From: Amoebophrya sp. A120
Lineage: Eukaryota > Protista > Dinoflagellata
Assembly: GCA_905178155.1 (NCBI GenBank)
Contig: CAJINV010000019.1
Location: 1,100,913-1,164,912 of the forward strand
DNA length: 64,000 nt
Direction of reading: 5' to 3'
The notes below the pieces were generated by a model. The model was not told the DNA's origin, did not search any database, and worked only from the letters and a program-made list of their open reading frames with translations. Position 1 is the first letter of the stretch; every line of letters starts with the position of its first letter. The translations under genes and the position numbers were made by a program. Shown here piece by piece: positions 13,065 through 34,312 of this stretch.

Positions 13065-15250
13065 GGCTGGGTAAAGGCACTTCGACTGGGTGGGAAGATA
13101 AAGAAGATACAGAAGCTGGTGTCGGTTGTTTTCTTGCGGAGGTCGGTCGCCTAGGTGGAGGAAAATAAAAACTTCTTCTACCGGGAGATTTTTACTAGAT
13201 TGCTACTAAGTTCTTGGAAAGAACAAGCGTCGAATGCAAGCGCGGCTCCGCTTTCTCAGCACCTGTTCCTCTTTTCGTCGACTTCGCCCCGGAGGTAGTT
13301 CTTGTCCAAGTCCACCTGATTCTAGTACGTTGTGGTACTTACTATCGGGGTCCCCGGAGCCCTAGGACGGCTGCAGTGAATGTCCCACGACGTCGAGGAG
13401 GGACAAATTAAAGCCACGCTCATGCTCTTTTCTTCGTCTCATTTTCGATGTGCCAGTACACGGCTCTCTGAAATATTACTAACTTGAGTATCTATTTTCC
13501 GTGCATCGGCTGCAGCAATCATGAACTCAAACCATACAATTATCCTTCTGGAGAACTACTACAACCAACTCATATAGCTTCTTCATGCTCGTCGTCACTC
13601 TTTTGTCTAAAGAACTTATTAATTTCTCTCTTGGTGTCGCCTGCGTAGTACTACAATTGATTCCATTTTAGAAGCGGTCTATGAATATTCGCCTTGTAGT
13701 GCCTTGTTTGTAGTACATGTGTTCGATCTTCATCTTGATGTTGACCCGACGCATTGAATTTCCGCGCCGGTTGGAGCGGAGCGACGACGGACTAGTGGCC
13801 GAAACAACACCGGTTCAATTTCACATCAGGCACCCCCGGTGCGGCGTGTCAAAAGAACGTGGATTACGATTACAGCCACACGCACTTCTCAGAAGCTACG
13901 AGCTTATGGTCTATTTTTTTAGTTATATCATCCTTGTTTTATTTCCTCCAAACGGATAGATCAGAATCTTGACTCTGCGTCTAGGCAGGGCGATAGATCC
14001 AATATGAGGCTGCGATTAACCAAAACACGAGCAGCTGCAGGTGCAGCAGAGATCTTTTATTACACATGTTGGCAGCACTCATTTGGGAGGTCAAAGTCTT
14101 TGGAGTTTTATTGCCTAGGATCTCGATCAGGATCAGGAGTATAAGTATAACGATCTAGTTTTATTAAAGGCCTGAATTTTATACGTAGAAACCACAAAGC
14201 AAAGGTGAAGAGCATACGGCTCTGATTTTTCAGAACCTCGTGTGCTGCTAAGGGCACCTCCTCTCGTCTATTCTCAGGCAGAATCTCGATTTGGCCGTAG
14301 TTTGCAGCAGCAACACATGCTGTATGCTGCAAGCTGCATAACGCAGAATTTTTCTTCAAACAGCATCATTCTGCCCTCCTCTCAGTCTTCACGCAATAGC
14401 AGCTTCCGAGAGATGTGGATACTCTGAAAGTCGTGCCGGTAGCAGCAATCCGCTTGATTTGAGTCGTGAGAATTGCATTTCCAGACCGGCAAATGACATC
14501 AACCACTGATCGTGATCATCCACAACACCAGATCTACTAATATGAACCCAACAAACTGCCTTCGCCGTCCTTTTCTCGTGCGTTGTTTTTTTTTGCACCA
14601 AGCAATAGTCCATCTAAATTTTTGTTGAAAAACTTTATTTCATTTTCCTGACGCAACTGCCTGTGGGTCTCTTTTTGATAATCATCATTATAATTTGTCA
14701 ATCTTTTCACAGCAGGATGAACGACGAAAATCCGCGATATTTCGTTAATCTTGCTGCTTGCTGTGCGTCAAAGACCACCCCGCAAAGACCGCGAAGAGCT
14801 TTTCAGATCATCAGATCCGGAGGACAGCTGCTGCTGTATAAGAGCCAGATCTTCACATACTCTAACACGACAATTCTCATCTGGTCGATCCGCTACGATT
14901 TTGATCATCTTGTACTCCTGCAGTTGCTTTTTACACGAGGGAAAAACGAAGATGACCTCTTCTGATTCTCTAGTGTAGTAGCAGGTCTACCAAAAAATTA
15001 AGTTAACACATTCTTTAAAGGAACGACTCGTCTCGTACAAAACGTAGACCTCTCTCTCTACCTAGTGGGAGCAGCAGACCATAGACCACGTCGCCGACCT
15101 AGAACTCATTCCAGTGTACTAATCATGCGTGGACCAAATCTCGTTGAGCCAAATTGGAATTCACATCGCAAGAAATGCCGAAATATAAAAATAAATGCGG
15201 TCTGCACGAGCCCGTAGTTATTGAGTTCCCTTGTTCTTTCGACAAGCTAC

Positions 15251-17815
15251 TTACGGCGTCCCCGCTATCACGAAGGTGAACAGCAGGCAGGCGGTCGCAG
15301 AGTTGACGCCCCGAATGGAGTTCCAGTAGGTCCAATTTTTCGAATACGCTGCCCAGGTGTCGTGCGCGCTCTCCAAGTGACCGTTTGGCTCCGGAGTATC
15401 AACTGCTGCTGCACAGGTGTCTTCTGGGTCTGGAAGTAAATATAAAGTGGGACTTGTGAAGATGCTTGTCTAGCCAATATCCTGGTGGGGGTGGCAAATG
15501 CAAATCAAAATCTGACTGTATTGCATGACCGAAAAGGCACGCCCTGCTTTGCTGTAGTGCATCATGCGCGCCATCTAAGTACCAGAGAGCGTGGTCTTAA
15601 CAAGTTGTCATGCTCTTTGGCTGAATTCGCAAGCGTTCCGGTCATGCACAATTCCACATCTCCACAAGTTTCCTTCCAGACCGCCTTAAGACATATATTG
15701 CATTTTTGCATACGGATTGTACTTCGCCAATTCGTCGTTCATCGGCACGTTGATTCCTGCCGTTTTTTATGCAAGTTCACGACAACAAGAACCTTATTTC
15801 CCACAATAATTTGTCGTGCGAAGTACCAAATCTAAACTCTGCCCCATGGCCCTGTTTGCATGAGAAGCTTTTTTTCGGATGAAGCCCAATAAAAAAAAAC
15901 AGTACTACACTGTATGTGTACAACACTTGTCTTGCGAACACTCGTCTTGCGGAGCCTGCCGTGTGGCTGTTGGTGTCCATATTTTTGCAGAAGAAGTTGA
16001 TGTATTCGGTCTTTTTCAAATTTTTATGAAGGGAGGGAAAGTTGCACGATACTTTCTCGTACTACTCCGAACTCGCCGATAAACAGGAGGATGCAGCTAT
16101 CCTGAGTAAAAACGTACCCACACCAGAGTTGTAATGCAGATTTGCAAAGACAGGAAGACTTGTACTGCGCATCCCCATGAGAGCCATTTCCAGTCGTGTT
16201 TTGGAATTTGTGATGCTGTGAAGAGGATGAGCAGATGAATCTGTGATGCGGCTGCACTTGCTAACCTGCACTACACTGCATAGTGCAACTTGTCATGCGT
16301 GACTCACAAAACTCCTAGGTTTGTGTTGCAAAATCCCCATCCTGACTCTGGTGTGGGTACGTTTTTACTCAGAATAGCAGCCAACGTAGAGCGCAAACGA
16401 CGTCAGCATGGAATCGGACTCACTTGGCTCTTGCGCTGGCGAGGTGTTGTTCATCGTGCCCTGGGTCGCTACTTGCGCCAACTGGTCACTCCCCGTCATC
16501 GTGGGCGTGGTTCCGCTTGTTGAATGAGAGTGCACGAAGACAAACATACAACCCCGCCCCATGATTCGTTAAATGCAAAATACCAAATCTAGTAGCCTTA
16601 GACTCGTCGTGGCAGTGTGTGCATGGCAAGTTCCCCCGAAACAGCACTGCATTCTCCGCAACTGGCCGAGTTGTCATGCGATTGCGCCAGCAGTGTTAGT
16701 TATCGCCAGAAAAAACTGTTTCACTGTAAACTTGTAATGCAGAAAATGCATCTCGCAAGTGTTTGTGTTGCTACACATGCAAGCCAGTGGATTTTTAGCT
16801 GTGTTTTCCCTTAGGAACCTCGCATGGCAAATTTTCCCTGTCATGTAGAACAAACTTGTGATACAAAACCTGCAAAATCCTTACAGTGAAACACTTTTTT
16901 CGTACGATATTAGTTGCTGGTGTCTCTGTTGCTGTAGTAAGTTGTAGATACCACTACAGTTCAAAATAACGACGGGGCGGGGGAGTAGGTATTTTCCACC
17001 CTCTTATGTCGCTCCTACCGGCTGATACGTGGCGTAGGCGTTCGGTGCGCCGGTTCCGAGCTGCAAAAATCGCAGCTCCTGGAGAACTATGAATTGCAAA
17101 AGCATCGTATTCGTATGAATGCATTACAAATTTCCTCAGCATGATGAGAAAGAAAATTTGTAATGCGGATTTGCCTCGGGAACAAGATTTGTAATGCAAG
17201 ACTTGCATTTATACGAGTACGATACTTTTGCACAGGATAAGAAACAGGAGCACCGCCAGGATGGGGGTGCCCATGAAGACCAGCATAAAATACTCGTTGA
17301 TAATCACCACGTTGATGCTGTTCATGACGTCAATCGCGACCGTCGCGTCCGGCTGCTCGTTATCAAATGCAAAAATGTCTGGGTCTGGAAGTTCTTGTGA
17401 TGCTGGCTGGGAAAGACGAGGACGCCTCAATGAATTGACTGGCAAGCATGACAAGTTTTGGAGGTGCTACAGTCTACTTGGCTTTTCTGCATGACACAGT
17501 GAGCTTCTGCATGACAGAAAAGTAGGGCTTTTGGCGGTAATTTGTATGACAGACTTGAGGGCGATGTCAGACAAGCATGACAAACTTCCATTCTTCCAGA
17601 CCCAGACGTATTTGCATTTGATATTCGTCCAAGGCGGGCATCACGCACACCGAGAAAATGAAATACAGGCCCGCCAGCACGCCCGAGCCCAAAATTGTTA
17701 ACGCGAGGAGAACACTCCGGAACAGTGCTTGTTTTGAGCCCGGCTTCCTTCTGCCCGCCGCCTGCTGCTGCGGGTTCTGGTGCTGGACCAGCGGATCGGC
17801 AATGGAGCTCTGCAT
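15251..17815 (-). CDS. DUF1772 / anthrone oxygenase-like membrane protein (multi-exon)
   Basis: Assembled segments GVLAGLYFIFSVCVMPALDEQ..MNSINVVIINEYFMLVFMGT..GEFGVTAGINVPMNDELA..WAAYSKNWTYWNSIR match the DUF1772 pattern. Middle exons (16.5-17.0 kb) are unresolved. Confidence 0.75.
15397..15712. mobile_element. Aged introner, family A with indels in the TIRs
   Basis: Flanks cggag/cggat; excision gives KYNPEPNG. Confidence 0.8.
15768..16061. mobile_element. Fossil element / non-canonical intron
   Basis: Separates EFGV from TAGINVP. An in-frame TAA two codons before ACG forces a non-AG 3' end after ..TTGCATA. TIR and TSD are largely lost. Confidence 0.55.
16098..16376. mobile_element. Introner family D
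   Basis: TSD gcagc/gcagc; excision gives YVGCILLF. Confidence 0.92.
16701..16909. mobile_element. Family F element (~210 bp)
   Basis: TSD ttagt/ttagt; TIR tatcgccagaaaaaactgtttcactgtaa; exonic vs intronic position unresolved. Confidence 0.85.
17088..17239. mobile_element. Introner family C
   Basis: Flanks agaac/agaaa; excision gives LLFLQELR. Confidence 0.9.
17361..17623. mobile_element. Introner family A
   Basis: Flanks ctcgt/ttcgt; excision gives PALDEQPD. Confidence 0.92.
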
Positions 17816-19023
17816 GTTGGAGTTCGTGATTCAAAAATTGATGCTTTTTAGGTAAGATCAGTGCCACAATCTTCCAACTTCGGAACTCTTCGAGTAGACA
17901 TGGCAGGGCAGATCACTCCATACTGCAGCTGGACCCAAAATCAAGGGGGCATCGGCAGCTATAAAAACTACGGCTGAAACTGGAGCCGCAGGTGGCCCTT
18001 CCGTGACCGTGAGAAAAAAGGCCTATCTCCGATGTCATGGCGGTCACCGTCATCACTACAGATTCCATACCCAACTGCGGTCTTTTCTATACGATGAATA
18101 CTGAGCGGCCAGGAGCAGAAACCAAACTTGATATTGAAACACCGTCCCTTCGCTCCACCACTTCCTCTCACCAGCTAGAGTAAGTTGCAGTATAAGGATC
18201 GACACTCAGAGGAACAGGAATCCTCGCACAATAAGTGCGATACAGTACAGTACACCTGCCCTACAGAGGACCCACCAGAGCGATGTTTTTTAAGAAATTC
18301 AGGGGAGAAGTTGAAGTCCTACAAGATGTTGAGGTTAAGGTTAATCACAAAGCAATTTGGATAAAATTGCAGCTCCAGTGTGATAATCTTAGTAGCTTCG
18401 CGGATTTGGTCTATAACTCGTTTCTTACTTGATACTTCTACGTGTATGCTCATTTTCAATCCAGGTCCATAAGGCCGCGATTAGTGGAGCTGAATCCTCA
18501 ACACACCTTAGTGCCTTCGCAAAAAAGAAGTAAAAACTGATGTGGAGTACTAGCCGAAGCTTGCCATCTTTCTGCAAGGCTCTTGCGCGGACAGTGTACT
18601 AATGAATTCTCAAGGGGTAACTACCAGAACTTTTGTTCAACGGGGTTACGTGTCGGTCCGGGGTAGAGTGGATTTATTTCATTCTCCGCGAAAGGCTCGT
18701 GGGGAGCGGATGGCGTGACTTCTGTCACTTTTTCTTTCGTACTTACAACTAAACGACACGCACTGCATCCGATTCAACGACGCACTTAATTGACGTTGCA
18801 TACCAAGAAACTACTCAGGAAACTTGGCGACAGGATCTCCATGCGTCGGGTATTAAGAGTGAGCTAATGCTATACATGTCTAGAAATTTCGTGTCTTTTG
18901 AATTTTGCATGCGATTGCGAACTTGAACTTGAATTGCGAGCTTGAACAGTACCACTCGCGCTACCAGGCAAACAACATGTTCTTCCAGGGAAGTGTCTGA
19001 TCCCAACTGCGCAGATCTTCAGT

Positions 19024-19836
19024 TCAGCGGCCCTCCGGCACGGCCGTACACGACTTGTCACTGTTAACACGACATTTCCAGCCGGGAAAGGGGTTTGGGG
19101 TAACGCCGCTTGGTACTGGAGTGCATTGCACATTCGAACCAGGAGAGCTGTTGATGGGTACCATCCAGGCACACTTCTCAAACGCACCACCATTCCCATG
19201 GAAGTGATAATGGAGACACGCGCCAACATGAACATGATGATGATCATTATCCGAACGAACGTCTGCTTCAGCATAGGCCGGATCGTACGTGGTGCAACGC
19301 GGCCCAAGAGTCATCGTCGGCGTCGGCGTCGTGTTGAAACCGGCCCAGCCTTGACCAGAGAGAGGTCCACGACACCATGGGTATCCTTTGGAAGCACCGT
19401 GAAAGACTTGCAAGAATCCTACCGGTTCTCCCAAGCCATTGAAGGATTGCATCTTGTTCGTGGCGCTTCCCGCAGTTTTGCCTGTTGCAGACGAAAAGAG
19501 CAATTAGTATTGATTGGTTTGAGATACATTCGGTTCACGATAAAGTGCCACAGTATAAAAAATTCTGTGCTGGTCTATGCGAGTAGATCTGCTTTGTGCA
19601 ATCACTTGTAGCGGCCCATCACCAGCCCGCACGACCAGGCGTGAAAAAATATTCTGTACCTGCCCGGTCCTCCATCATCTTGGAAGTGCGCGGGGAGTGG
19701 ACGATGCCAACCGCACCCCCCCCCCCTTCGCGACCGACTTCTCCGCCATCTTCTGGCCGTCGGTCCCTTCACTGCCCTGCTTCAAAGCGGCCGCGACCTG
19801 CGCGCCGGCGAACAAGGTGGTAGTCTTCTTCGGCAT
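19024..19836 (-). CDS. Hypothetical Cys/His-rich protein, two exons
   Basis: ATG at 19836 with a GC-rich open exon. A GT donor at ~19659 and CAG acceptor at ~19482 join in frame to ORF 19024..19503. No recognised domain. Confidence 0.45.
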
Positions 19837-21263
19837 GATTTGGCTTCTGATCTTTTACTTCCGACTGCAGATGATGTACTTCGAGGTTAAGTTTTCGAAC
19901 CACAAGTAGTGGCTGTTGAGGAAGTTGCTGTGAAGTAAATTGAGACGAGGGTCAACTTCAGAAGAATGGCCCTTCACGATCAACGCGAAAAAACAGTATG
20001 TAATCGTCTGCGACTGGCAGCGAGCTGCACTTTACAAATTTCCTGCACTTTGTTTGAAAAAAAGATAAAGGTCGACAGCTATCGGGATCATGAATCGAGA
20101 TAAGGTTAAAGCTCGATACAATTCTTTATTACCGGGGTGGCCATAAGGGGCAGAACGAGCTTGAACGAAAACGATTGCCTCGAGTAGGGACGTACCACGT
20201 GTGAAGCTAGAGACTTTCACGCCCTACCATCGGTGCACGTACGAAAATAAAATTCTGCTGCATATAAAACGCGTGTAGTTCTTCGTCTTCCTTGCGAATC
20301 ATGCAATCTTCTCTATTTTTGTGCAATAGTTCTGGCTGGTTAGTGTTTCCCGGTACCGCAGTCTATGGTACTTCGGGACCCGGACGACCACGACAAAGGC
20401 ACTTACGAACAGAGACAGCCTCCACGTCACTGTGTGTACTTAAACTAGCGTGCTACCCTTCATGGTACGATGAGCACGACGATTCGAAAGCATCTACTGC
20501 ACTGACGTCTCCCACTGTAAACAGAGCGAGGCTCCTTTCAAATAAAGCTATGCAAAGCAATATTAAAAGACCGATGAAACAAGGACGTTTTCATTCTGTT
20601 TCCAAAAAGACAGGCTGTTGTTGCTTTCACGATTCCATAGTTTATATATATTTTATGACACGACTAAAAATGCCTGTTTGAACAACTTCGCCATCACGCC
20701 ACAACAAGAGCAGGAAGTTATTTGGAGCGCCAGGACGAACCCCGCCAAGGCGGATAAACAAGCACTTCTGAGGCCGACAAACTAGATGCCTGATGCCAAT
20801 CACTAAGCACTTTGATTGTCCTACGCGTAGCAACAACAGCAGGAGATGATGTACTTAACATCTGCGGCTGTCGCTTCTTTTTTTCCATTCCCCTTGGTGG
20901 ACAGCACATTGAAATTCACAAGTAAGTATCACGCGACAAGTTTTTGCAACCCGCCAGCGCATCGGGTTTCTAAGTAAGTGCCGGTAAAAATCGTACTTCT
21001 CCAGCCATAATGTGCTTGTGTGCAACAATACCACTGCCATTCGAGATTCGTCTGGTGCATGCCTGCTCCCCACTTTGCGACAAAAATAAAAATATCAGTC
21101 ACTCCTCAGGATCGCGCGACTTCTATTTTTAGGTGAACAGATATATACCGACCTGCTACGTCCCCGTAGCAACAAAACTTCCACCTCACCTTCGCCCGTA
21201 CAGATCCCAGACGCTGTTCATCATACTGAAAAGCGACCCTACCCCGGACACACCTCGGCAGCA

Positions 21264-24200
21264 TTACATTTGCATTTTTCCTATGGAGACACTCCCTGTC
21301 CTGCACATCCTAGCAACACAGATTTTATTCGATACAGGATTGTAGCCGTGAGAGTCCGCTCTACAAAAAGGGATAGAAAGCGCGGAGCCTGTCATGGGCG
21401 AAATGCGTTGCGCACGACTCTTGATCATGAAACCCAGTGTCCACCTTTCACGCAAGACAAAAGAACGCACCACTAGAACCCTGCGCAACATCTTCACAAA
21501 GAACATTTTCTTCCTTCCGCCTCTACTAGGGAGCGGGGCACCGGCACTTTTCATCACGATACTGTTCTGCAGGTAGTATTTCGCTTTGTTTTCCGGCAGT
21601 AACCACTGGTCCAGTCGTCCCACCGCAGCTGCGTCTCGCCACGCATCCAAAAACTGCAATCGGATGGATATTTCCCCTTGGGGACGACTCGTAACCGGAC
21701 CAGGAGTAGTCGCTACTTTACTTCTGCTTTGCATTTGCTCTTGTTCATCGAGAAATAAAGTTGTGGTGGAACTACATGTCACGTGCTGCAGCTATCCTGA
21801 GTAAAAAAGTACCCACACCAGAGTCAAGATGGGGAATCGGCTAGACAAATCCACAAGTTTTGGTTGTTTTGCATGACAAATTTGGATTCGTAGTGTAGTG
21901 CTGTTTGAGCTAGCTCAGCAGCATCACAGATCTAGCATACCATGCTGATTGGAGCATGACAAATTGCAAAACACGACGAGACAATGCTCCTCATGGAGCT
22001 CCGCATGAGAAACATTTCCAGCATGCAGATTTGCATTACAACTCTGGTGTGGGTACGTTTTTACTCAGGATAGCAGCAGCGGCTTCTTCAGCGGAATGTC
22101 GTCGGCAAGTGGGAGTCTGAACACATATGGATTGTAAAAATGTCTGGGTCTGGAAGAATGGAAGGTCTGTCATGCTCTGCCAGCATGACCCCAAAGTCTG
22201 TCATGCACGTTACTCAAGAGCCACGTTTTTTTGTCATGCAGAGACGCAGTTTGTCATGCAGATTAGGCAACACCTCGAAGCTCAGAAACTTGTCATGCTG
22301 AGCCTGCACTTGTGACCGCCTCATGATACGCCAACCAGCATCACAAGTTTCCAGACCCAGACATTTTTACATTTGATAACACATAGTCCGGCACGACCTT
22401 CCCGGCGCCCTGCCTCGTATCAAATGCAAAAGTGTCTGGGTCTGGAAGAATGCATGTTTCTCATGCTTGTCTGGCATGACTCTCAAATCTGTCACGCACG
22501 TTACCCAAGAGCTCCACTTTTCTGTGATGCAGGAACGCAGTTTGTCATGCAGAATAGGCAACACATAGAAGCTCAGAAACTTGTGATGCTAAGCCAGCAT
22601 TTGTGGCCTCATCACGAGACGCCACCCAGCATCACAAGTTTCCAGACATCCAGGGATTTTTACATTTGATACCTCGCTACTTCTTGCAAATCCACGACGC
22701 AGCGGCCGAGAAACTCCAGGTCGGCGGCCATCCTCAGCAAAAACTTCCCCACCCCGGAGGTGGAATGCAAATGCGCAATGATAGGAACATTTGTAATGCG
22801 CATCCCCATGAGAGGCATTTCCAATCGTGATTTGGCATTTGTAATGCTGTAAACAGGATTAGAAATAATTGGCTTTCTCATACGGCTTGCCTTGCTAAGC
22901 ACCACTTTACTACAGACGGAAACTTGTCATGCACAATATTTTTTTTTTATTGGCCCGCTATTGTGCTTTTTTTCATCATTCGTTATCTATTTTTTTTTTT
23001 TCAGCGGACGGGTGCGATCTCTGAAATGTGAAGGGTGCGACACAATTCACATGCCAGGTTACGCGGGTATACGGCAGTTTTTCCCGATTTGAACTTGTCA
23101 TGCACAATTCCCAAAGCTTGCCGATTTGTCTAGCAGATTTCCCATCTTGACTCTGGTGTGGGGACGTTTTTACTCAGGATAGCGGCCCCATCGGCAGGGC
23201 CGAAGGAGGTCGTCGTGGTATCATCAGGCCGAGACCAGACGGTGAGGTAAATGTAGGAGACGTTCAGCACGTCCAGAAAAAACTGGTTGTGGCTTGCGTG
23301 AACAGGTATACCCAGGTAGAAGGTCGGGTGTTACACAATCTCAAGCATTACAGGACAAGATTTCAGAGAACAACAAGTGTGTTGAATTATATGAATCCTA
23401 GAAGTCCCACTCTCTATGCATGATTACCCAGATGAACTATATGGCCTGTCGTGCGTTGGGTAGAAGTCTAGCATCACCACATTTTTTTGCTTTGATTGTA
23501 ACACTTGAGATTGATTGTTGCAACACCTGAGCAGACCATATAGTGCTGCGAATGCAACAGACCAGGTGCCGACAAAGCATTGGCCCCTCCAAGATGTTGC
23601 TGTACGAGTTGCGAGTTCTTTGCTGTCGCTGCTGTGGTCGAAGTTGCTGTCGTGGTGGCTGCAGAAGCAACTGCCCTATTAACCGTGTTGCTCGTCTTGA
23701 GTTCCTTCGGCTGGTGGTGGAGCGTGGCCTGGTTCAGGTCCTTGTTGCGCTTCGAGTTCGACGCACCACCATCCAAAGGGGACGACGTTGGCCCTAGTAC
23801 AGCTGTACTATAATTGCTGTCGGCATTAGTCGCAGCACTGAAGTCTGCAAAGTTCGCAATTCCCAGAACCGTGTTGGTCTCCAAAATCCTGGGGTTTCCG
23901 CGATCGCACTCAATCCGCACGAAGGGATTTCTTGGTGGATGAACTTGTGAGCAAATATTTGCCGCTGCCGATTTATTTCTCTGCCTCCCGTTTGACGGGG
24001 CCGAAAAGGACCCGGCGTTTTTGCAGCTGCCGAGCTTTACGCTGAGAACCTCGATCCGCAAGCAGTAGCTGCGTTTCTTGCGCAGCATCCGGCGCTCCAA
24101 AAACCGCCGCACGTTTGACTGGATGCGTACCGCGGTTTTCTCGCGCAACAGCCGCCGCGCCTTCTGCTCCTGCAGGTTGCTCACGAATCTTTTCACCCGG

Positions 24201-27200
24201 CGCAGCGCCAACTTTTGCACGGGCTGCAGAAAGCACTCGGACACGTCCTTCGCAACCACCGTCTGCACGAAGGCCTGCAACTCTCTCTTCGAAGTGCCGG
24301 CGGTGGAAAACGGGCGGGAGTGCAGGGAAAAGTCAACTAGCGCGTCGTACTGCCACTGCAGTGCCTCGTATCAAATGTAAAAATGTCTGGGTCTGGAAGG
24401 ATGCAACTTGTGATGCTATTTTTGGAAGCTGAAAAAATTTGCATTGCATGACCAGCAAGAGGACCCCAGTTCGTGCTACGTGGAGAGGGTATTTCTCATG
24501 CGGAATAGGCTTCAGGAGGGGTTCTAAAAATCTGTGATGGTAGGACATGCATTACAGGCGTCATGGGTCATGCGAATTATGCATGACAAGTCTTCCAATC
24601 TTCCAGACCCAGACATTTTTACATTTGATACCTCGTCGTGTTCCGCAATACGCTTCCGTTCCGCTTTTCCAGGGATGGTCTCGACGAATCGTGTGCTTTG
24701 AGAACTCGCAGGCAGAGGATCATGATGAATCGCGACGGCAAGAACGCCATCCTCTTCATCTGCGCTGGAGCAGGTACCCGAATGGTTAGTATTTATTCCA
24801 CTGTCGTGGTCGACAGCTTCTTGTGGCAACAACAGGGTACTATGCTTGCCGCTCTTGCCCGGTACTAGTTCTACTGCGTCGCCACGTTCCTGTCCCTCGC
24901 AAGACGTGCTGGCGGCCGACCCTACCACTAAATCCTCCGCGGATGATGTTGAGGCAGCTCCTACGCCAGAACTCGCGGTCGCCGACTTTCGCAGGGTCGT
25001 TCGCAGGTTATTGCGCGCGGACACAGCCGGTAGATCCCAGAGCGAGGAGGGGGGCCCCGTCGGTGAAGAAGATGGAAAACTGCTCTTCTTTGCATGCTCT
25101 TCATTCCACTGCACGTCGAAGAACGTCTTCCGTTTCTTGAGGCAGCTGCAGGTGACGAGGCAGGTCAGCAATTTCTTCAATGCGCTCGGGGAGTGGAGAA
25201 TTCCGTATTCAAACCGAGGCCAAAACGCCAGCGCGAGATATCCAAGAAAAAGACGCTGCTAGTGTAAATTTGTGATGCTAAAACAACCGCGCCAACATTG
25301 CCATTGCCATTGCCATTGTGTAAACTTGTGACGCGCAACATGCAAGATGATTGCGTCTGTCATGCTTGGCATGCATTGTAGGGCCCATTAAAGGGCGTTT
25401 TCGCGTACTATCTGCGCATGACAGGTTTTTGCTGTCATGCCAGACAGATTTGTAATGCTGTTCCTCCAAAAAAGTTACTCCTACAACGTTTTTTTCTTGG
25501 ATACGAGAAGCACGGTTACCACAGTGTTCACCAGTAGGGAGATCAGCACTTTGAATTCCCTTCGCACCGGAAAATCGGCGGGGAAAATCTCGTCCAGGAG
25601 CACCGAGTTGGTGGAGTTGGCGGCGAAGAGATCTTCTCCACCTGCTCCTGTTGCGTTTAGAACAACAACTCCGTACGCGACCACACCCGCAGACAAAACC
25701 CACAACAAAAGCGAAAATCTTCCCCAGAAGGACCGCCGCAAAAAGTGCTTCAGTTTGGCTAGCACACGCTGGTGGTCGTCCTCTGAGGGTCGCGATGTGA
25801 GGAGGGTAGAACTAGAAGTTGTTTTGTTCAGCAGTTTATTTATCCTTTCAGCGGCAGGAGCATCGAAAGACACATGATGCCGCTTCGTCACGGTCGTAGT
25901 ACCCAGCCGCAGCCACAACGGGTCGAAGTAGAAGCGGTGCGAGTACAGCTGTTGTTCTAGTAGAGAAAGGGATATTAGTGCCGGTTCTCGCGCTCCTAGT
26001 ACTGCGCCCATGTTGTTGGTGCTTCTGCTTCCACACGAGGGAGGCGCTACCACGAGCCGGGGTTTTATCAAATGTAAAAGTGTCTGGGTCTGGAAGATTG
26101 GAACTTGTGATGCTGCATTTGGATCGCAAAAAAATCTGTATTGCATGAGCAGCAAAGGGAATGTGATTTTTGCTACGCGGAGATGGCATTTGTAATGCGG
26201 AATAGGCATTAAGAAGCCCTCAAAAAATCTGTGATGCTAGGGCACGCATCACAGACATCAAGACTCATGCAAAACCTGCATGACAAGTCTAGAAATCTTC
26301 CAGACCCAGACACTTTTACATTTGATAGGTTTGTACCGCAGCTTAAACAGTGCGTAACTGATCACGGCAGACGCGACAGTGTGTTGCAGAAACCCCGTCC
26401 GCTCGGGGACAACACTGGAGATGGGGGAACGGTATGCGTTGAAACTGTGTCTGCGTGTAGTGTCTGAATTACGTGCTGCAAAGCGCTTCAAGAAGAAAGA
26501 ATTAGAAAACAACGCACATCAGAGTCCTGAAGAAGGGCCCCCTTCAATAAAAGAACGTTGCAACATGCTCGATCATCGATCGCGTCCTCAGGCTGCGATG
26601 GTGATAGAATCTTTGATCCGAAACCTCCAACAGCACATGCAAATTTGAAGCATGATTATATATTCGATTCCTGAAGCAGGACACCACTGCACGTCGCAAG
26701 AACCACGACCACAGTAGTTGCAGTTGCTCTTGATAGATTGGAGCTTGACAGGATGTAGCCCGTAAATCCGTGCAGGAGAGCGACGAAATGTGCACACAGA
26801 AGAAGCTGCAGCAGGTTCCAAGTGGTGACGCCTGAACGTTCATTGTCGTCGTGTGGATCAATGCACAGCAGAAATTCATTGAAAATCATGAGTGCAAGAG
26901 CTTGCCCTTCTGTATTTTCTTCTTGTATGTAAGTCAATGTAGAAAGAAGTGAAAGGATCAGACGCATGCTAGCAAAAGAACTTTCCACCTACGTAAAATC
27001 ATCTAAATTACCGCTGCACCCGCCGGCGGGCTGTGCCACAACGACCGCGGTAACCACACGCCGTAACCGAGAGAAAAGACCTGCTCGGCAGCCCTATCCT
27101 GAGTAAAAACGTACCCACACCAGAGTTGTCATGCAGATTTGCCATGACAGGAACATTTGTGATGCGCAACCCCATGACAGGCATTTTCAATCGTGTTTGG

Positions 27201-28051
27201 GAACTTGTAATGCTGTAAACAGGATCAGCAGATCGATTTGTGATGCGGCTTTCCTTGCTAACTTGCACTACCTTACGGACTGAAACTTGTCATGCGTGAC
27301 TCACAAAACTCCTAGGTTTGTGTTGCAAAATCCCCATCCCGACTCTGGTGTGGGTACGTTTTTACTCAGGATAAGCCCGTGCGCGACACCCACCCGACAT
27401 CCAGATGGCGGGCGCGGCGGCGAATCACATGCAGGCCGTTATCCAAGTTCACCTCGAAAAAGATAGCAAATGTAAAAATGTCTGGGTCTGGAAGATTGCA
27501 ACTTGTCATGCTGTTTTTGGACTCTAAAAAAATTTGTATTGCATGCCCAGCAAGAGGGGCGCAGTTTGCGCTACACGGACAGGGCATTTCTCATGCGGAA
27601 GGTGCATCAGGAACCCCTCTAAAAGTCTGCGACGCTAGGTCATGCATTACAGGCATCATGGGTCATGAGAAATATGCATGACAAATCTTGCATTCTTCCA
27701 GACCCAGACATTTTTGCATTTGATAAAAGACGCCTGCGAGCAAAATTACCTCGGTGAGGCTGCAGGCTTATGCAAAGACAAAAATGTTACAGGTGTTACA
27801 CACATGGTCTAGAATGCAGACCGAAAAAAAAAAACCACGTCTGTCCTGAAGGACATTAGGCTCGGAGGTCTAAGTAGCTTCATGGGTGGCTCTTTCTCTG
27901 ATGAGCTCTGTCTTGCAAGTTTTCGCTGTCATGCAGAGATGATGAATTTGCGTTGCTGAAGTTACAACAAAGGTGTATTTGTAACACTTTTGTCTTGGGA
28001 TAAAGCTACGAGAAAAACCGATACGGGGGAAAGCCACGATTTTTCTGCCAT
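21264..28051 (-). CDS. Predicted membrane protein with IQ motif and C2-like domain (multi-exon; may be two genes)
   Basis: Starts MAEKSWLSPVSVFLVACSLTEV with hydrophobic segments. IQ motif AVRIQSNVRRFLERR; C2-like LRIEVLSV..NPFVRIEC..YLTVWS..EFLGRCVVDL..GEISIRLQF. Ten element excisions keep the frame. The link at 26.5-27.0 kb is not resolved. Confidence 0.6.
21793..22072. mobile_element. Introner family D
   Basis: TSD gcagc/gcagc; frame restored. Confidence 0.92.
22126..22378. mobile_element. Introner family A
   Basis: TSD acaca/acaca; frame restored (DYVFRLP). Confidence 0.92.
22418..22671. mobile_element. Introner family A (variant right TIR)
   Basis: TSD cctcg/cctcg; frame restored (EVARQGAG). 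Confidence 0.92.
22729..23181. mobile_element. Introner family D, expanded
   Basis: TSD gcggc/gcggc; left terminus CAT; ~170 bp T-rich internal insertion; frame restored (GAADLEF). Confidence 0.85.
24369..24630. mobile_element. Introner family A
   Basis: TSD cctcg/cctcg; joins ORFs 24524..25180 and 23474..24280 in frame. Confidence 0.92.
25239..25503. mobile_element. Introner family F, aged
   Basis: TSD cgaga/cgaga; excision gives VLLALAFWP. Confidence 0.85.
26066..26327. mobile_element. Introner family A
   Basis: TSD ggttt/ggttt; excision gives RYKPRLV. Confidence 0.92.
27095..27373. mobile_element. Introner family D
   Basis: TSD agccc/agccc; near-perfect ~32 bp TIR. Confidence 0.92.
27464..27725. 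mobile_element. Introner family A (TAG left terminus)
   Basis: TSD aaaga/aaaga; excision gives AGVFFEV. Confidence 0.9.
27769..28002. mobile_element. Introner family F, aged
   Basis: Flanks aggct/aagct; TIR ..aagacaaaa(a/g)tgttaca; excision gives FLVACSL. Confidence 0.8.
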
Positions 28052-29448
28052 AATTTTTCTTCTTCAACTTCTACACCTACCAGACCCGCCGTCTCTAGGC
28101 TCCTCGGGCCATCGCACTCTGTCTTTGTCCCTAGAGGAAAACATGCATCAAGCAACAAGTTCTTCCAACTCTAGGAAACGGAACGAGTCCGAAAATGCAT
28201 GGCAATGCTCAACATTTGTCACTTTCAAAATGAACCGGCAAAACGCCGCGCTGCGACAAAAGACCGAGCTGACTCTACTTTCATCTCCACGAGAACTAGA
28301 ATCGATAGGGTGCTGCCCGCACCGCGCACGTCGTGGCACGACAGTGCTGAAAATGTTGGTAGCGAGCGAGTGTTTTCTTTTTTCTTTTCGTCCGTTTCGA
28401 AGTCAGCAGCCGATTCCGCATAATAAATTCAATTCTTCTTGTTTAATAAGTACCAGGCCCAGCAACTTCCAGCGGTCTGTGGCGCAGCCCCCCGGGAAAA
28501 GCTGTCACTAGTTCTCGCAATGACAGCACACACCTTCGGAAAGGTGGAAGACAAAAAGTAGAAAAAGGACTTTGGAAAAAGCACAACTCGGTCAGTGTCA
28601 ACATTTGCGATGAAGCAGTAGAGACAAGAACTTTGTTTGACTAGAGTAAAAATTCTTGAACATGTTGTCAAGTTGTACAGCACTAAATGACAAGTATACG
28701 TTGTACACGACTATCGCAGGAGCTCCCAAGCCTGACCCACACTCTTGCTTGCTTCCGACAGGAAATCGGCAGAAGCATGCTCATACACTTGTTCGATCCT
28801 AACTTCTGAACGGAGCGCGGTCGCACACCACGTCAGGATCTTAACCCCGGAATTTCCAGAAGTGCCGCAGGACGGAAAACTTCTAGGTGCCGAAGTAGCT
28901 CTATTAAGGGCGTACAAGAGAGGTAGATGAGCCCGGTCAGTACAATCGTAATCGTAATCCATAAGCAGAAATAAGTACTAAGAGTATCAATGAAGATCGC
29001 GTCGACATTTTTTGACTTTTTGGAGATAATATTACCGAAGGTCGCGCTACTAGAAAAATGTGCTTGAGTTGTACAGACGCAACAGTAGAAGTAAAGAGCA
29101 GCACTAGTGGTGTAGTACAAGAAATGCTATCAGGTACATTTTAAGTAACTGGCTCGTAGACGTAGACTATGAGCGTGCACAACTCCCCTTCCCCCTCACT
29201 TGTGTGGTCGATTAACAGCAAAGCAAACACCAGCACACGTGGAGTTCGTGCATAAGAATTGTGCTGTTTGGGCTTCCGGATGAGTTCGGGATGCAAACAC
29301 TGCCAACGCAGCAACTAGATTGTGCATTTTGCATGACGAATGAAGGGGGCGCCGGGGAGTAGTTGTGCATTCCGATATTAGAACTAGAAGCTGAGCTCGA
29401 CATATTGAAATAGTGGGACCCTTACCAAATATAGCCGCCGAGGCGGGG

Positions 29449-30227
29449 GTAGTGAGGTCAAGCGGGGTTTTTTTGACTCGACGACGCCGGGTCTTTTTGC
29501 TCTTTCCACAGGAGAAACGCTCTCCCGCACGCTATGGCCCCACGAGGGCTTCCGCCAGGGTCGGCCCTGTGGGCCGCCCACATCGGGCCCATAGCATGCG
29601 GGCTGGCTTGCTGCATTTGGCGGGATTTGCGTCCTTTGGTTTTTTTTGTTGAAAAGCCGCGCCCCTGCCGCCTCCTGAATCGAAACGCCTTCCCGCATGC
29701 TATAGCCACCCCCGGGCCTCCACCAAGCCCGGCCCCATGGGCCCCCAAAATTGGGCCCATAGCATGCGGGTTAGCTTTTAGCTTTTGGCGAGCTTTCCGC
29801 TTTTTGTTGCTTTTTGTTGAAAAGTCGCACTTTTTGGATTGCTCCCCGCATTACAAATGCCCGACTTTGGTGGCCGTCTTTGCGACCTCCGAAAGTGGCC
29901 AAAAATGGTGGCCATAGCATACGGATTCGCCGCTTTTGTCGTCTTGGCATTTTTTCGGCGCCCCTTTTTGGGCGCCCCAAATCGGCGGAATCAGGTGCGC
30001 TGGGCGCCTCAGAATGGCGCCCCTTTTGCTGGCTCCTCTGCGTCGTTTTTTCAAGCGGCGACCGATAGAATCCGCTGGCGATTCGGTGCCAGGTCAGCCA
30101 GGGCCGCTTGATAAGTGGAGACTTTTTTCGTGCAAAAAGCCGTCCGGCCGCTTGAAAACTGCCGGTCGTTTTGCTGTCTTGGTGGCAAAAAAACTCCCCG
30201 GTTAGAACCGTTCGGTGACCTCACTAC
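29449..30227. mobile_element. Intergenic TIR element (MITE-like) with internal tandem hairpin units, unrelated to the introners
   Basis: gtagtgaggtca (29449-29460) and tgacctcactac (30216-30227) form a perfect 12-bp inverted pair; internal ~170-bp units are repeated. Confidence 0.6.
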
Positions 30228-30260
30228 ATACAAATTCTCTTTCTTAAGCGATTCCCCCTA

Positions 30261-33200
30261 TCATGTCCCAAACCCGTTGTCTGTGAGCCACTTCGCTACC
30301 TCCTCGTGGGTTGCGGCCTTTTTTGTGTATCGCTCGAAAAAGTTGTGAGTCACTGTAACGATATTTTGCAGGACCTGGCGCCTCAGCACACGTTCGTCTT
30401 CATGCATCACAAACAAACAAAGTCTCAAATGCGTACCTCTCATACCAAAGAAACACGGCTAAAAATGATCCTCTGTCTGGCATTTCTAGCAAGACAAAAC
30501 GCGTCTGTCTGATGATGTTGTCCAGCCCCCCCAGTTTTATCTTGGCAGTGAATCAGTTTCAGTAGTTTTCACTTGCGATATTATGAACGGCAACTGCAAT
30601 AAATTATCCGCACCCAGCCGCACGAATCACATAGAAAAGCGCACCCCTAGCATTTCCGACTATGTGTGTTGTGGTAGTTTTTACCTTCTTCTCGCGAAAG
30701 CTTCTTGAAGTGGCTGTGCAGCATGACAAGTTTTTTGGCACCCGAACCCCTCCACTGGTACTTGCGTATGATTGCAATTGCAGGTGACACAGCACCACAA
30801 GATTTTTGTACTCGCAGGACCAATAAGTAAGTCGATACAGCAACACAAGTTCTTTTTTTTTTTGCTGATCATTAGATGGGTGTACAACTTTTCTGTGTGA
30901 TAGGAAGGTTGTATCGCGCACCAGCGCTTTTTCGATGAATTCGCAAAGTTCAGGAGAATACCTGTGGTTGTACAGAATCGTATAGGAAGGATGAATGCAT
31001 AAGTTTAAGTGTTCATATTCCAAACTACGGTGGTTCCCTTTGACACTGCGTTTTTGATGTTCAATCATTCAAATGCATTTGCTTTTTTGCATTTAAGTCA
31101 GTACGTTTCCTTGTCCAGCCGGGGCTCCTGTCGAGTGCAGAGATAGTCGAACAGCACGGGAAATGAGGTTATGTTCGGGAAGGGGTACTGTCGCGTCGCA
31201 AGCTCGTAGATGACCATCCCCACACTCCATATGTCTGAGGCGTAGCTGTATCGCAAGAAAAAAGTGTTACAGTGACACATTGCGTTGCAAGACCGGCAAC
31301 ACAGACAACCTCTCTCATGCAGGAAATGCTTGGAAGCCTCGTTTCCTTCCTGTTTTCCCTTATGATCTTCGCATTACAAGTTTTCTCTGCCACACAGAGA
31401 AAATTTGTGATGCAGAAACTCCAACAAATGTGTCACTGTAACACTTTTTTCTCATGATAAGCTGTAGTCTTGGCCTAGTGCGCGTTCCGGGGACATGTAC
31501 GTCGCAGTGCCGACAAACCTACAAGATGATCGGTTTCTTCATCCAATTCGCATCACCGCAAAAGGGCACAAGTTGCAGTGTCGCACCGCATCACAAGATC
31601 TAGAACGCAGAAACAGTGCTTGATCATATCAGATGACAGACGATAGATCGCCGAGATACTAGACAGATAATATCGTAGACAGCCTCGGCCTCAATCGATG
31701 AGCAGCAAGGTGAGGAACTACAAGAAAAACAGAAAACTATATATACGTCGCTGCCATGGCTACGGTCGAATTCAAGTCCCTTGATATCCCGAAGTCGGTG
31801 AGCTTCACGTGCCCCGTGCTGTTCATCAAAATGTTCTCTGGCTTTATGTCCCGATGCAGCATCTTCTTTTTTCCGTGAAGATGTGCAAGCCCGAGCAGGA
31901 CGTCTTGCGCTATACCTGTTGTAGTAGTTTTTTGGATAACATAGAAGTCGATACATTGGCTGTCCAAGTAGCATGACAAGTGCCACTGTTTTGCATTTTC
32001 TGCATCACAGACTTATCCAGGTAGTTGTACTTGCGAGGATTTTTTCTGGCACCCCCTTGACGTCGGCGGGAAGTCTCTTCTTGACGTCAGCCGGATATTC
32101 TCTGCAAATTTACCGCACACGACGAAGCAAGACTGCGGCCCCCGAAAGACAGCGCCACTTTCCTCTCTTTATTTCACATGACACTTTGCCTCTTCGCTTC
32201 CGGCGGAGGTTTGCAATATATTCTCATACATGATGTTGCACTGCGGTACACGTTCTGTTGTACGGTAAATTTGTAATATTGCATACCAGGCTACCGCGGT
32301 CCATGAGTTCCAGTGCCACGTGTACGGCGCCGGTGTTTTTCGCGACGAAAGCTGCGTACCACTGGACTAGCTGCGGGCAGCCCTGGGCATTTATGAGTCC
32401 CTTTATTTCGTTCAGCATCTGCTCTTTCTTCGCCTTCGCGTCCACTTTTATCGTTTTTATCGCCACCGGCGTCCCGGTGGGCTTGTGAATGCCCTTTTGC
32501 ACGATGCCGCACGGTATGCGATTGGGAAAAATATTTTTCAAGTGGCGAAAGGGAGATGTAAATGAAATCACTATGTAAATTGATTCAACATGCGACAACT
32601 GATCTTTTAAGGCCATCGACGTTCTGCTTAGACTGCAGAATATTGATTGCAACAAAACATAGCAGATAAAAAACTACACATCCTTCGGTGTGTCTTCCTA
32701 CATCGGTCGGTGCAAAAGGTCCTGCAGAAACTACAAATCTAAAAAAAAAAATCTCCTCTTCACAACCTTGAACCATAGTAGGGCTGCATTTCATACCGGC
32801 GCCGTGGCCCTATCACAGTGAAAAATGCCCCCCACCCCAAATTGCAAGAATTTGTGATGCGAAGTTTCCAAATGAAAGCTTTTTGTCATGCATGAAAGGA
32901 GTGCGAATCTTTCTGATGCAGATTCTAGTCGTGTTTCGCATCGCTTGCATGACAAGCACCGCTCTTGCTGGGATCTTTTGCAATACAAATTTTTGCTATT
33001 CACGATCGGAAATCCGTGATGCTGATACACGCAAGAGGGCGAATGTTTCATTTGGAAAGATTTGCAATACAAATGCTTTCAAGTTCGGGGGTGGGGGCAT
33101 TTTTCATTGTAATAGGCCCAGCATGTTGTCCTCTAGCTCTATGTCGGCGGGCGAGAGCTTATACCTGTGTATATGTACTTAAGTCAAGTCTCAACATATC

Positions 33201-34312
33201 ATAATCTGTACTGCCCATGCGCGCACGTCGATGATACGCAGTTCTGTCATGCGAACAAGTTCTCCGTTGATCAGACCACGAATCTAAAAGAGTGAGTTAT
33301 CAAATGTAAAAATGTCTGGGTCTGGAAACTTGTGATGCTGGGTGGCGTCTCATGATGAGGCCAGAAATGCTGGCTCAGCATCACAAGTTTCTGAGCTTCT
33401 AGGGGTTGCCTGTTCTGCATGACAAACTGCGTTTCTGCATCACAGAAAAATGGAGCTCTTGGGTAACTTGCATGACAGATTTAAGAGTCATGCCAAACAA
33501 GCATGACAAACATGCATTCTTCCAGACCCAGACATTTTTACATTTGATATGAATACTGTTGCCCATCCATCTGCACGCCGCCCTCCGCGGATATCTTCAT
33601 TATGCATTGCAAATGTGTCTGGGTCTGGAATTTGTCATACTTGTCTGAAATGGCTCTGAAATCTGTGATGCACAACGACCGGAACAAGAAGACCTAGACC
33701 ACTCTTGCCTGTCGTCATGCAGAGCCGGTGATTTTCCATCATGCGAAATACGCAACAGAAAGCAGCTCGGCATTTATCATGTTTCGATGCGTACTTACTG
33801 AAATTAAGTATGCGCCCCCCCCTTATACAGCCTTGCATCGAGACCCAGACACATAATTTCCACCTGATATTCATCCCGCTGGGTCGATGCTCGATGCTCC
33901 CGTCCGCTCCGACGGACCACTATCGAAAGGACGAAAGTTCCCCCCTCCCCATATCAAAACGAAGTCTCTGATGCCGGATTTGTGTACACAGATCCGGGCT
34001 GTCTTGCTGGAGAGCACTGCAGGCCCATATCAAGTCTGAGTAGAGAGGTTTTGGCGTAGGCGCTTAGCATAACAAACGTCCGCGCTGTAGGCCCAACAGC
34101 ATGACAAACCGCCTGCGCAATGCGGCGGCTGTCTGCGGAGTTGCCTTCTTGCAAGACAGACACGACTTGTGGCCACAAATCAGCATCACAGATTTCCAAA
34201 CGTGTACCTTTCCAGTATGAGGAGGGGGAATTTTTCCTTTTGATAACCACGTCATGGACACCGTGTCCTCCGGCTCCACGTCCACACAAAACTGCAGCTT
34301 CGGCGGGGGCAT
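30261..34312 (-). CDS. Mitogen-activated protein kinase kinase (MAP2K/STE7 family)
   Basis: LGHGA(G/C)[59 protein letters not shown]; ends TDNGFGT*. Confidence 0.9.
30328..30580. mobile_element. Aged introner (family F-like)
   Basis: Flanks ttgtg/ttatg; excision gives LLQLPFIKKA. Confidence 0.75.
30625..30902. mobile_element. Aged introner (family F-like)
   Basis: Residual TIR aatcacatagaaaag / cttttctgtgtgata; flanks gcacg/ggaag; restores kinase subdomain XI (VRDTTxRLGAD). Confidence 0.72.
31249..31459. mobile_element. Introner family F (~210 bp)
   Basis: TSD agctg/agctg; restores [10 protein letters not shown]. Confidence 0.94.
32096..32285. mobile_element. Fossil introner
   Basis: TAT..ATA ends; flanks ccgga/ccagg; restores RGSLADV; no in-frame AG acceptor. 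Confidence 0.7.
32515..32795. mobile_element. Fossil introner
   Basis: TAT..ATA ends; flanks cacgg/ccggc; restores Gly-rich loop LGHGAxGIV. Confidence 0.7.
32811..33114. mobile_element. Introner family E
   Basis: TSD ggccc/ggccc; restores MLGHGA. Confidence 0.93.
33298..33549. mobile_element. Family A element nested 7 nt inside a GT-AG intron
   Basis: Flanks tgagt/tgaat; host intron ~33165-33556 (QQ|YKLSP). Confidence 0.88.
33601..33869. mobile_element. Introner family A, aged
   Basis: TSD ttcat/ttcat; excision gives SGMKISAE. Confidence 0.85.
33921..34245. mobile_element. Introner family E
   Basis: TSD accac/accac; excision gives MTWSVGAD. Confidence 0.9.

Follow-up and report, generated by a model that had tools for sequence, protein, structure and literature searches.

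More than 60% of the introns of the dinoflagellate Amoebophrya sp. A120 are non-canonical, and the published account, which reports their borders as unknown and leaves the mechanism of their removal open, describes introners: families of repeated introns of about 240 nt with inverted repeats composed of TAT, seven looser bases and a run of A, and with direct repeats of 3-5 nt across the borders (PMC7789003). Table S4 of that paper has T in second place in all nine predominant motifs of A120 and in all nine of Amoebophrya sp. A25, without stating this as a rule in the parts available, and A25 introns are given with T-TA-RR starts (PMC7789003). We analysed a window of 64,000 nt of A120 (contig CAJINV010000019.1, positions 1,100,913 to 1,164,912; all positions below refer to the window), in which such elements are very probably removed as introns of the form N-TAT…ATA-NNNN in one fixed register, with the junction 4 nt into the upstream copy of a 5-nt direct repeat.

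The elements of the window share the TAT inverted repeats, the direct repeats at the borders, the length of about 240 nt and the family structure with the A120 introners of Farhat 2021; relative to the text and legends of that paper, the single register (1+4 nt), the strict 5-bp duplication and the strand-specific donor N|TAY are different, although the published figures may already show part of this (PMC7789003). Judging from the available excerpts, the nonconventional introns of Euglena are similar in forming a majority class without GT-AG, in having short motifs with a potential to pair at fixed distances inside the ends, in their slidable junctions resulting from direct repeats, and in the proposed origin from miniature inverted-repeat transposable elements (MITEs); however, the Euglena signature N3CDG…CH'GN5-6|R is replaced here by N-TAY…ATA-N4 without a purine at the exon start, the donor resembles the spliceosomal donor of the host, and the two lineages are unrelated (PMC12501133). 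Introns of Fritillaria borealis are likewise derived from transposons with terminal inverted repeats (TIRs) and target site duplications and have non-GT-AG ends, and they are handled by an adapted U2 spliceosome; the accessible parts of these papers describe an AG-AC/AG-AT preference, the presence of U1 and largely isosteric terminal pairs, whereas all 16 pairs are found here at their expected frequency (PMC13326754, PMC11282704). The introners of Micromonas, Aureococcus, Symbiodinium and Florenciella are also non-autonomous DNA transposons turned introns, with splice sites derived partly from the duplication, but according to the passages at hand they co-opt or carry GY/AG, while no particular target sequence is needed here (PMC9860276, PMC11282704). 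A fixed register for Amoebophrya is not stated in the available portions of PMC12130899, PMC12005148, PMC11282704, PMC9860276, PMC11453091 and PMC13326754, and no later paper on the register was found among the matches listed, a coverage that excludes subscription papers and theses. The elements are known, and the rule for their splice sites appears to be unreported; it is supported by the contigs of one sample together with comparative data.

About 70 elements with TAT…ATA ends are present in the window. With minimum values of 15/22 for the stem and 4/5 for the repeat, 50 pairs were counted, and the same thresholds yielded 0 in each of 20 shuffled windows, showing that the elements are not due to chance. 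In a curated set of 69 elements, from which the weak candidates 74 and 658 had been removed beforehand, flanking repeats of length 5 had an identity of 0.91 (48 were perfect), a value to be read in view of a selection partly based on the repeat match, and other lengths (2-4, 6-8) gave 0.25-0.30. In a related genome, where detection was based on the stem and no repeat filter was applied, the identity was 0.92 for elements with both TAT and ATA. The start with TAT, about seven loose bases and then at least three A is common to the 69 window elements and 271 related elements, the border repeats have a length of 5 within the published range of 3-5 nt, and 21 junctions, all in contigs of one sample that probably represent RNA, show the removal of elements with non-GT-AG ends: the window elements are the published A120-type introners. 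They are also miniature DNA transposons with TAT…ATA ends and 5-bp target duplications, because they have TIRs, a duplication of fixed length with empty sites, and repeated families, six of eight of which occur in both orientations relative to the coding strand. The base composition of the duplication is that of the flanking exon, which indicates that no particular target sequence is required, and 44 different end combinations occur in the 69 elements. TIR positions 1-3 are complementary in 66-68/69 elements and positions 11-15 in 57-66/69, while the ends are complementary at positions 4, 5 and 7 in only 32-42/69, so that an internal loop often lies between the terminal triplets and the inner stem.

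The insertions have left direct traces in the related genome, for which loci were obtained by a motif scan and 134 were used, two of them (L042/L043) orthologous to the window at 2.3-11.5 kb. Of the ten window elements for which both flanks could be located, eight are missing from the relative, and each empty site retains one 5-mer (three more window elements fell outside the loci of the relative and were not counted); conversely, all 5 of the relative-specific elements checked correspond to empty sites with one 5-mer in the window. These reciprocal empty sites with a single 5-mer demonstrate true 5-bp target duplications. Around RPB1 (2300-11500, about 9 kb), where exons are about 97% identical, there are eight window-specific, at least five relative-specific and two shared elements; a possible sixth relative-specific element of about 975 nt near 6577 is visible as an alignment gap only.

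The position of the splice junction was read from Logan contigs of the runs X1 and X3 (one sample, for which the RNA label is a guess), aligned to 14500-33800. The joints listed, 15 of 41, comprise four GT-AG introns and 11 rows that cover 12 elements, and nine further element junctions were deduced by combining the coordinates of contig pieces with the lengths of the records; the raw RNA runs X8 and X9 matched repeat interiors only, left the genes uncovered and gave no joint, and were therefore left out. At all 21 readable junctions (12 direct, 9 deduced) the element plus 5 nt is removed, with the reservation that for 21793, 22126, 22418, 22729 and 23307 the removed length comes from one length sum fitting two records. 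One contig has lost at least seven elements together with four GT-AG introns, and the absence of both intron types from a single contig argues for mRNA.

Eleven of the 21 junctions have mismatched repeats and can be located by the number of nucleotides allowed from the upstream copy. Elements are labelled by the position number used for their repeat, and all are on the minus strand. The allowed range is widest for 15397 (G-TAT…ATA-CTCC with a weak stem, intron 15393-15713, joint 15391→15713 in X1 and X3) and 17088 (17084-17240, joint 17082→17240), each with 1-5. Intron 15768 (15764-16062, joint 15763→16063 with a slack of 1, X1 and X3), which has a repeat of 2/5 identity and no predicted stem, allows 3 or 4 and thereby sets an upper bound; the initial annotation gave its repeat correctly as AGTAG/AAAAA, while the assumed TAT start is in fact TAC on the sense strand (GTA at 16059-16061 of the plus strand), the ends being G-TAC…ATA-AAAA. 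A second upper bound is given by 17361 (A-TAT…ATA-ACGA, 17357-17624), with 0-4 and position 5 from the downstream copy, deduced from a piece resuming at 17625 (X1 and X3) and record lengths that add up. Intron 23307 (A-TAT…ATA-CCTG, 23303-23541), a site absent from the initial annotation, has a repeat of 1/5 identity and is non-slidable at exactly position 4; it was deduced from a piece starting at 23542 (X1 and X3), and the 255-nt gap fits both records.

The remaining sites mainly supply lower bounds. In the 3' untranslated region (UTR) of a kinase gene, 29168 (29164-29378, joint 29162→29378 with a slack of 1) allows 4 or 5 with a repeat of 1/5 identity, and the 806-nt intron 29430 (G-TAT…ATA-TTTG, 29426-30231, joint 29422→30229, X1 only) allows 4-7, i.e., at least 4. 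These two UTR elements are still excised in register despite their decayed repeats (1/5 and 3/5). Within the coding part of the same gene, 30625 (C-TAT…ATT-CGTG, 30621-30903, joint 30619→30903 with a slack of 1) and 32515 (32511-32796) both allow 4 or 5, in agreement with protein conservation: the spliced products read DTTFRL, as in the homologue P0003, and HGAGG, respectively. The range 3-5 applies to 30328 (30324-30581, joint 30322→30581) and 32096 (32092-32286, joint 32090→32286), for which the repeats CATAA/CACAA and CCTGG/TCCGG had been given correctly. The GSL motif at 32096 is conserved in 11 of 12 homologues, as had been claimed; in contrast, PFI at 30328 is exact in only one of nine covering homologues, with a hydrophobic third residue in eight of nine and never Thr, and its conservation is too loose for it to count as evidence on the junction.

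Position 4 of the upstream repeat is the sole value common to all 11 sites. Relative to a fixed position 4, the likelihood is 1e-4 for a uniform distribution over 0-5, 0.03 for 3-5, 0.03 for 3-or-4, 0.12 for 4-or-5, and zero for a fixed 3 or a fixed 5. The range of 3-4 nt originally proposed is thus narrowed to 4, with 3 excluded as a single rule, and the prediction of upstream bases at positions 1-4 and a downstream base at position 5 fits the contig junctions at 15768, 17361, 30625, 32096 and 32515. We infer that every copy uses position 4. The positions of the repeat mismatches themselves are uniformly distributed (13/14/9/7/11, p=0.55) and do not locate the junction. The claim that most other mismatches are synonymous holds for 7115, 10117, 17361, 46316 and 62824; at 27769 it depends on the gene being on the minus strand, and 41147 is uncertain (Phe/Ser in the longest frame). 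For 7115 the mutated base is among the discarded ones, and because the mismatches at 7115 and 10117 are synonymous neither of them helps to place the junction. Evolutionary evidence comes from element 2497 (2493-2759, minus strand): the mutation lies in the fifth base of the upstream copy, the relative's empty allele agrees with the downstream copy at this position, and retaining the upstream base would change Gly to Asp relative to that allele, in a stretch with 15 base differences but one amino acid change between the two genomes. From this comparison, 2497 favours position 5 from the downstream copy and thereby strengthens the upper bound.

The two ends of the introns are not equivalent. 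Of 383 elements found in the related genome, 271 were kept for which the strand calls of site and locus, made with a codon model, agree; adjacent calls agree in 206/218 cases. L003 7739, L001 1359 and L064 2745, whose ends are unusual and whose strand calls conflict or are lacking, do not enter the asymmetry statistics (L064 2745 would have a changed 5' T if it is an intron on the locus strand). On the sense strand the 5' triplet is TAT in 265 and TAC in 6 elements, and the 3' triplet is ATA in 256 with variants in 15. Changes at triplet positions 1-2, i.e., +2T/+3A versus the mirror positions at the 3' end, number 0 versus 12 of 271 (p=0.0005), and the window shows the same direction, with 0 versus 4 among 69 elements. 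The 3' ends change at a rate of 2% per site, near the repeat mismatch rate of 4% per pair of sites. We conclude that strand-specific selection maintains the donor as N|TAY. Position +2 is T in 21/21 RNA-supported non-canonical introns and in 271/271 related elements, as the initial annotation had foreseen. The canonical donors of the host are similar, being GTAC or GTAT in all four RNA-supported introns and GTAY in 20 of 38 introns predicted by a rough gene finder, compared with a background of 11%; a U at +2 and a donor resembling the canonical one of the host are features of U2-type introns. Other features of that type are lacking: the termini are not GT/GC…AG or AT…AC with a G·G or A·C pair, the bases at +1, -2 and -1 are unconstrained, and all 16 combinations of +1 and -1 occur at the expected frequency (p=0.38). 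The first exon base is also free (G 82, A 72, C 66 and T 51 among the 271). The view that the ends are not read as dinucleotides is therefore supported for +1, -2 and -1; the 5' site behaves as a sequence signal, N|TAY.

By folding, the TAT:ATA pair is expected to form in 14 of the 21 spliced introns. The idea that the cut position is counted from the long inner stem was rejected as a general rule, because 32096, 32515, 30328, 29430 and 23307 are cut according to TAT/ATA with the inner stem out of register; at 32096 it is displaced by 3 nt, and at 29430 a 16-nt insertion separates it from ATA. Guidance by repeat identity was likewise rejected, since 29168 and 23307 are spliced at 1/5 identity, and positions -5 and -7 were both rejected as the site of a fixed branch A, with 9 and 3 changes, respectively, among 271. 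Single changes of ATA lie mostly in copies with a strong stem (in the relative by construction; 2/3 of the RNA-supported cases), and the most strongly decayed of the spliced introns retain ATA. The acceptor would thus seem to lie 4 nt past ATA, its position secured by sequence and hairpin as mutual backup. The proposal that the cut is measured from the TAT/ATA stem was only half right, as the 5' site behaves as a strand-specific sequence signal and the pair is not predicted everywhere; in place of the stem alone, we propose a donor read as sequence together with an acceptor whose position is set.

On balance it is probable that the fixed register is combined with a modified U2-type spliceosome and a hairpin-positioned acceptor. 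The donor would be read as N|TAY by a rewired spliceosome, the terminal hairpin would bring the ATA end beside the donor, and the acceptor is predicted 4 nt beyond ATA, so that a new insertion in either orientation would restore the original mRNA exactly. The 1+4 nt add up to the length of the 5-bp duplication, and the symmetry of the ends makes orientation irrelevant, so that an insertion would be silent in the mRNA whichever machinery is used. That the hairpin positions the acceptor is inferred from the folding and the decayed copies; that the spliceosome performs the cutting is suggested by the similarity of TAY to GTAY, by the removal of both intron types in one contig, and by the hybrids 15768 and 29430, in which a GT donor is paired with a non-AG acceptor of the element type. 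U2, U4, U5 and U6 were found in A120 while U1 was not detected, as far as the available text goes (PMC7789003), which we count in favour of a spliceosome, as we do the T in second place of all predominant published motifs of A120 and A25. More tentatively, at slightly less than even credence, the introns might obey a second splicing code that is complete in itself, N|TAY…ATA-N4|, served by a spliceosome lacking U1 with terminal contacts only to +2U/+3A and a 3' site set by the hairpin, the 1+4 geometry matching the 5-bp duplication so that an insertion at any sequence and in any orientation would be born perfectly excised; A25 would have the same N|TA donor.

Several observations weigh against a fixed register used by a spliceosome. 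Spliceosomes normally require the first and last intron bases to pair as G·G or A·C, as well as an A at -2, according to the parts of the sources at hand (PMC8283771, PMC13326754), and the free pairing of +1 and -1 conflicts with such a pair; neither A of ATA is invariant among the 271 related elements, and no fixed branch A was seen in them; the TAT:ATA pair is not predicted in 7/21 spliced introns; one or two of the 12 elements with 3' changes look like poor candidates, and the strand calls in the related genome derive from our own codon model. The register itself was read from one sample (X1 = X3, RNA by guess) with 15/41 joints listed, contigs drop rare variants so that minority junctions are invisible, and the upper bound rests on one direct joint (15768, with a canonical-looking GTAC donor) and two deduced ones; the mismatch at 10117, in a retained base, gives no support, and the Fig. 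3 legend of Farhat 2021 describes the splice sites as variable relative to the hairpin (PMC7789003).

The unconstrained terminal bases and their free pairing, the lack of an invariant branch A, the presence of six of eight families in both orientations and the predicted TAT:ATA pairing would all be expected if the same register were used by a distinct machinery that is guided by structure and independent of the spliceosome, as has been proposed for Euglena, which provides a precedent, and possibly with the release of circles. We regard this as unlikely, because the invariant +2T/+3A and the Y at +4 match the GTAY donors of the host, because hybrids of a GT donor and an element acceptor exist (15768, 29430), which are reported as rare in the accessible part of the Euglena paper (PMC12501133), and because five of the 21 spliced introns, all among the seven without a predicted TAT:ATA pair, have no predicted in-register terminal stem either.

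Alternatively, the junction could shift by 1 nt among elements or molecules (4 or 5, or 3-5), which would agree with the published Fig. 3 legend and with the Fig. S23 legend, where the A120 inverted repeats lie 1-5 nt from the splice sites (PMC7789003), and which contigs would conceal in minority molecules. The likelihood ratio of about 8 between fixed 4 and a 4-or-5 mixture discriminates weakly over all 11 sites, and from the nine directly read sites alone the mixture has a likelihood of 0.5. Such a shift is nevertheless quite improbable: the three sites with an upper bound and the five with a minimum of 4 all converge on 4, the junction of one non-slidable site falls exactly there, and a TAY kept strictly at one distance implies that the donor is fixed, while slidable junctions alone would be expected to mimic variability in read mappers, and such junctions were removed in the Euglena study according to its available text (PMC12501133). 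A DNA origin of the joined forms, as empty alleles, excision products or retrocopies, is barely credible, for although the RNA label of X1 and X3 is only a guess and empty alleles are present in the related genome, one contig jointly lacks elements and GT-AG introns, the junctions are hybrids between diverged repeat copies, the conservation is strand-specific, and two other runs contain 0.82-0.87 of the words from the element-bearing stretch.

The gene interrupted by the introners from 30328 to 32515 encodes a protein kinase, MAPK-kinase-like by our own reading (30261-33600, minus strand, start possibly further upstream); its best named homologue is a protein of Amoebophrya sp. A25, 97% identical over one exon. 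Introners with perfect repeats are removed from it at 31245-31460 (joint 31243→31460) and 32807-33115; the latter shares the contig joint 32510→33115 with 32515, and the two flank a micro-exon of 10 nt (32797-32806; 9 letters between the sides of the joint, 10 nt at register 4). The four GT-AG introns of the gene (30962-31104, 31519-31746, 31916-32030 and 33165-33556, minus strand) all have GTAY donors, and an introner at 33298-33549 is nested 7 nt inside the last of them, the whole outer intron being removed in the contigs. A further introner, with the perfect repeat GCTGC (16094-16377, minus strand, joint 16092→16377), is in a region (14700-18230) of two tandem minus-strand genes that resemble DUF1772/Anthrone_oxy and have different introner positions; the DUF1772-like assignment at 15768 found a match to Anthrone_oxy (PF08592), which is weak (E=0.019, below the cut-off, one exon). 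The strand-assignable genes of the window, RPB1 and the kinase, are on the minus strand, as are 41 of 42 codon-model strand calls and genes that we take to encode a DEAD-box helicase, a CWC25-like protein and a WD40 protein. Among unusual copies, an element at about 52345-52595 has a left end without TAT, apparently 1 nt short, and a short gene at 27090-28010 contains three elements, one with TAG instead of TAT; if that gene is on the plus strand, element 27464 starts with TAG and is an exception at +4 only. End-motif matches in two viral contigs were taken as chance, as these are AT-rich (29-30% GC); one of them (L135) is inside a phage open reading frame without a surrounding element.

The fixed register turns an intron set seemingly devoid of signals into one rule, by which gene models can be corrected, and it gives the exact mutations to test (+2, +3, ATA, spacer and stem). 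If the introns are spliceosomal, the second step of splicing would proceed without a terminal G·G or A·C pair. The rule would explain why insertions inside genes are harmless and would fix borders that had been left unknown, and it accounts for the spread of these transposons through essential genes, for example in the surroundings of RPB1, with its eight insertions in A120 and at least five in the relative.

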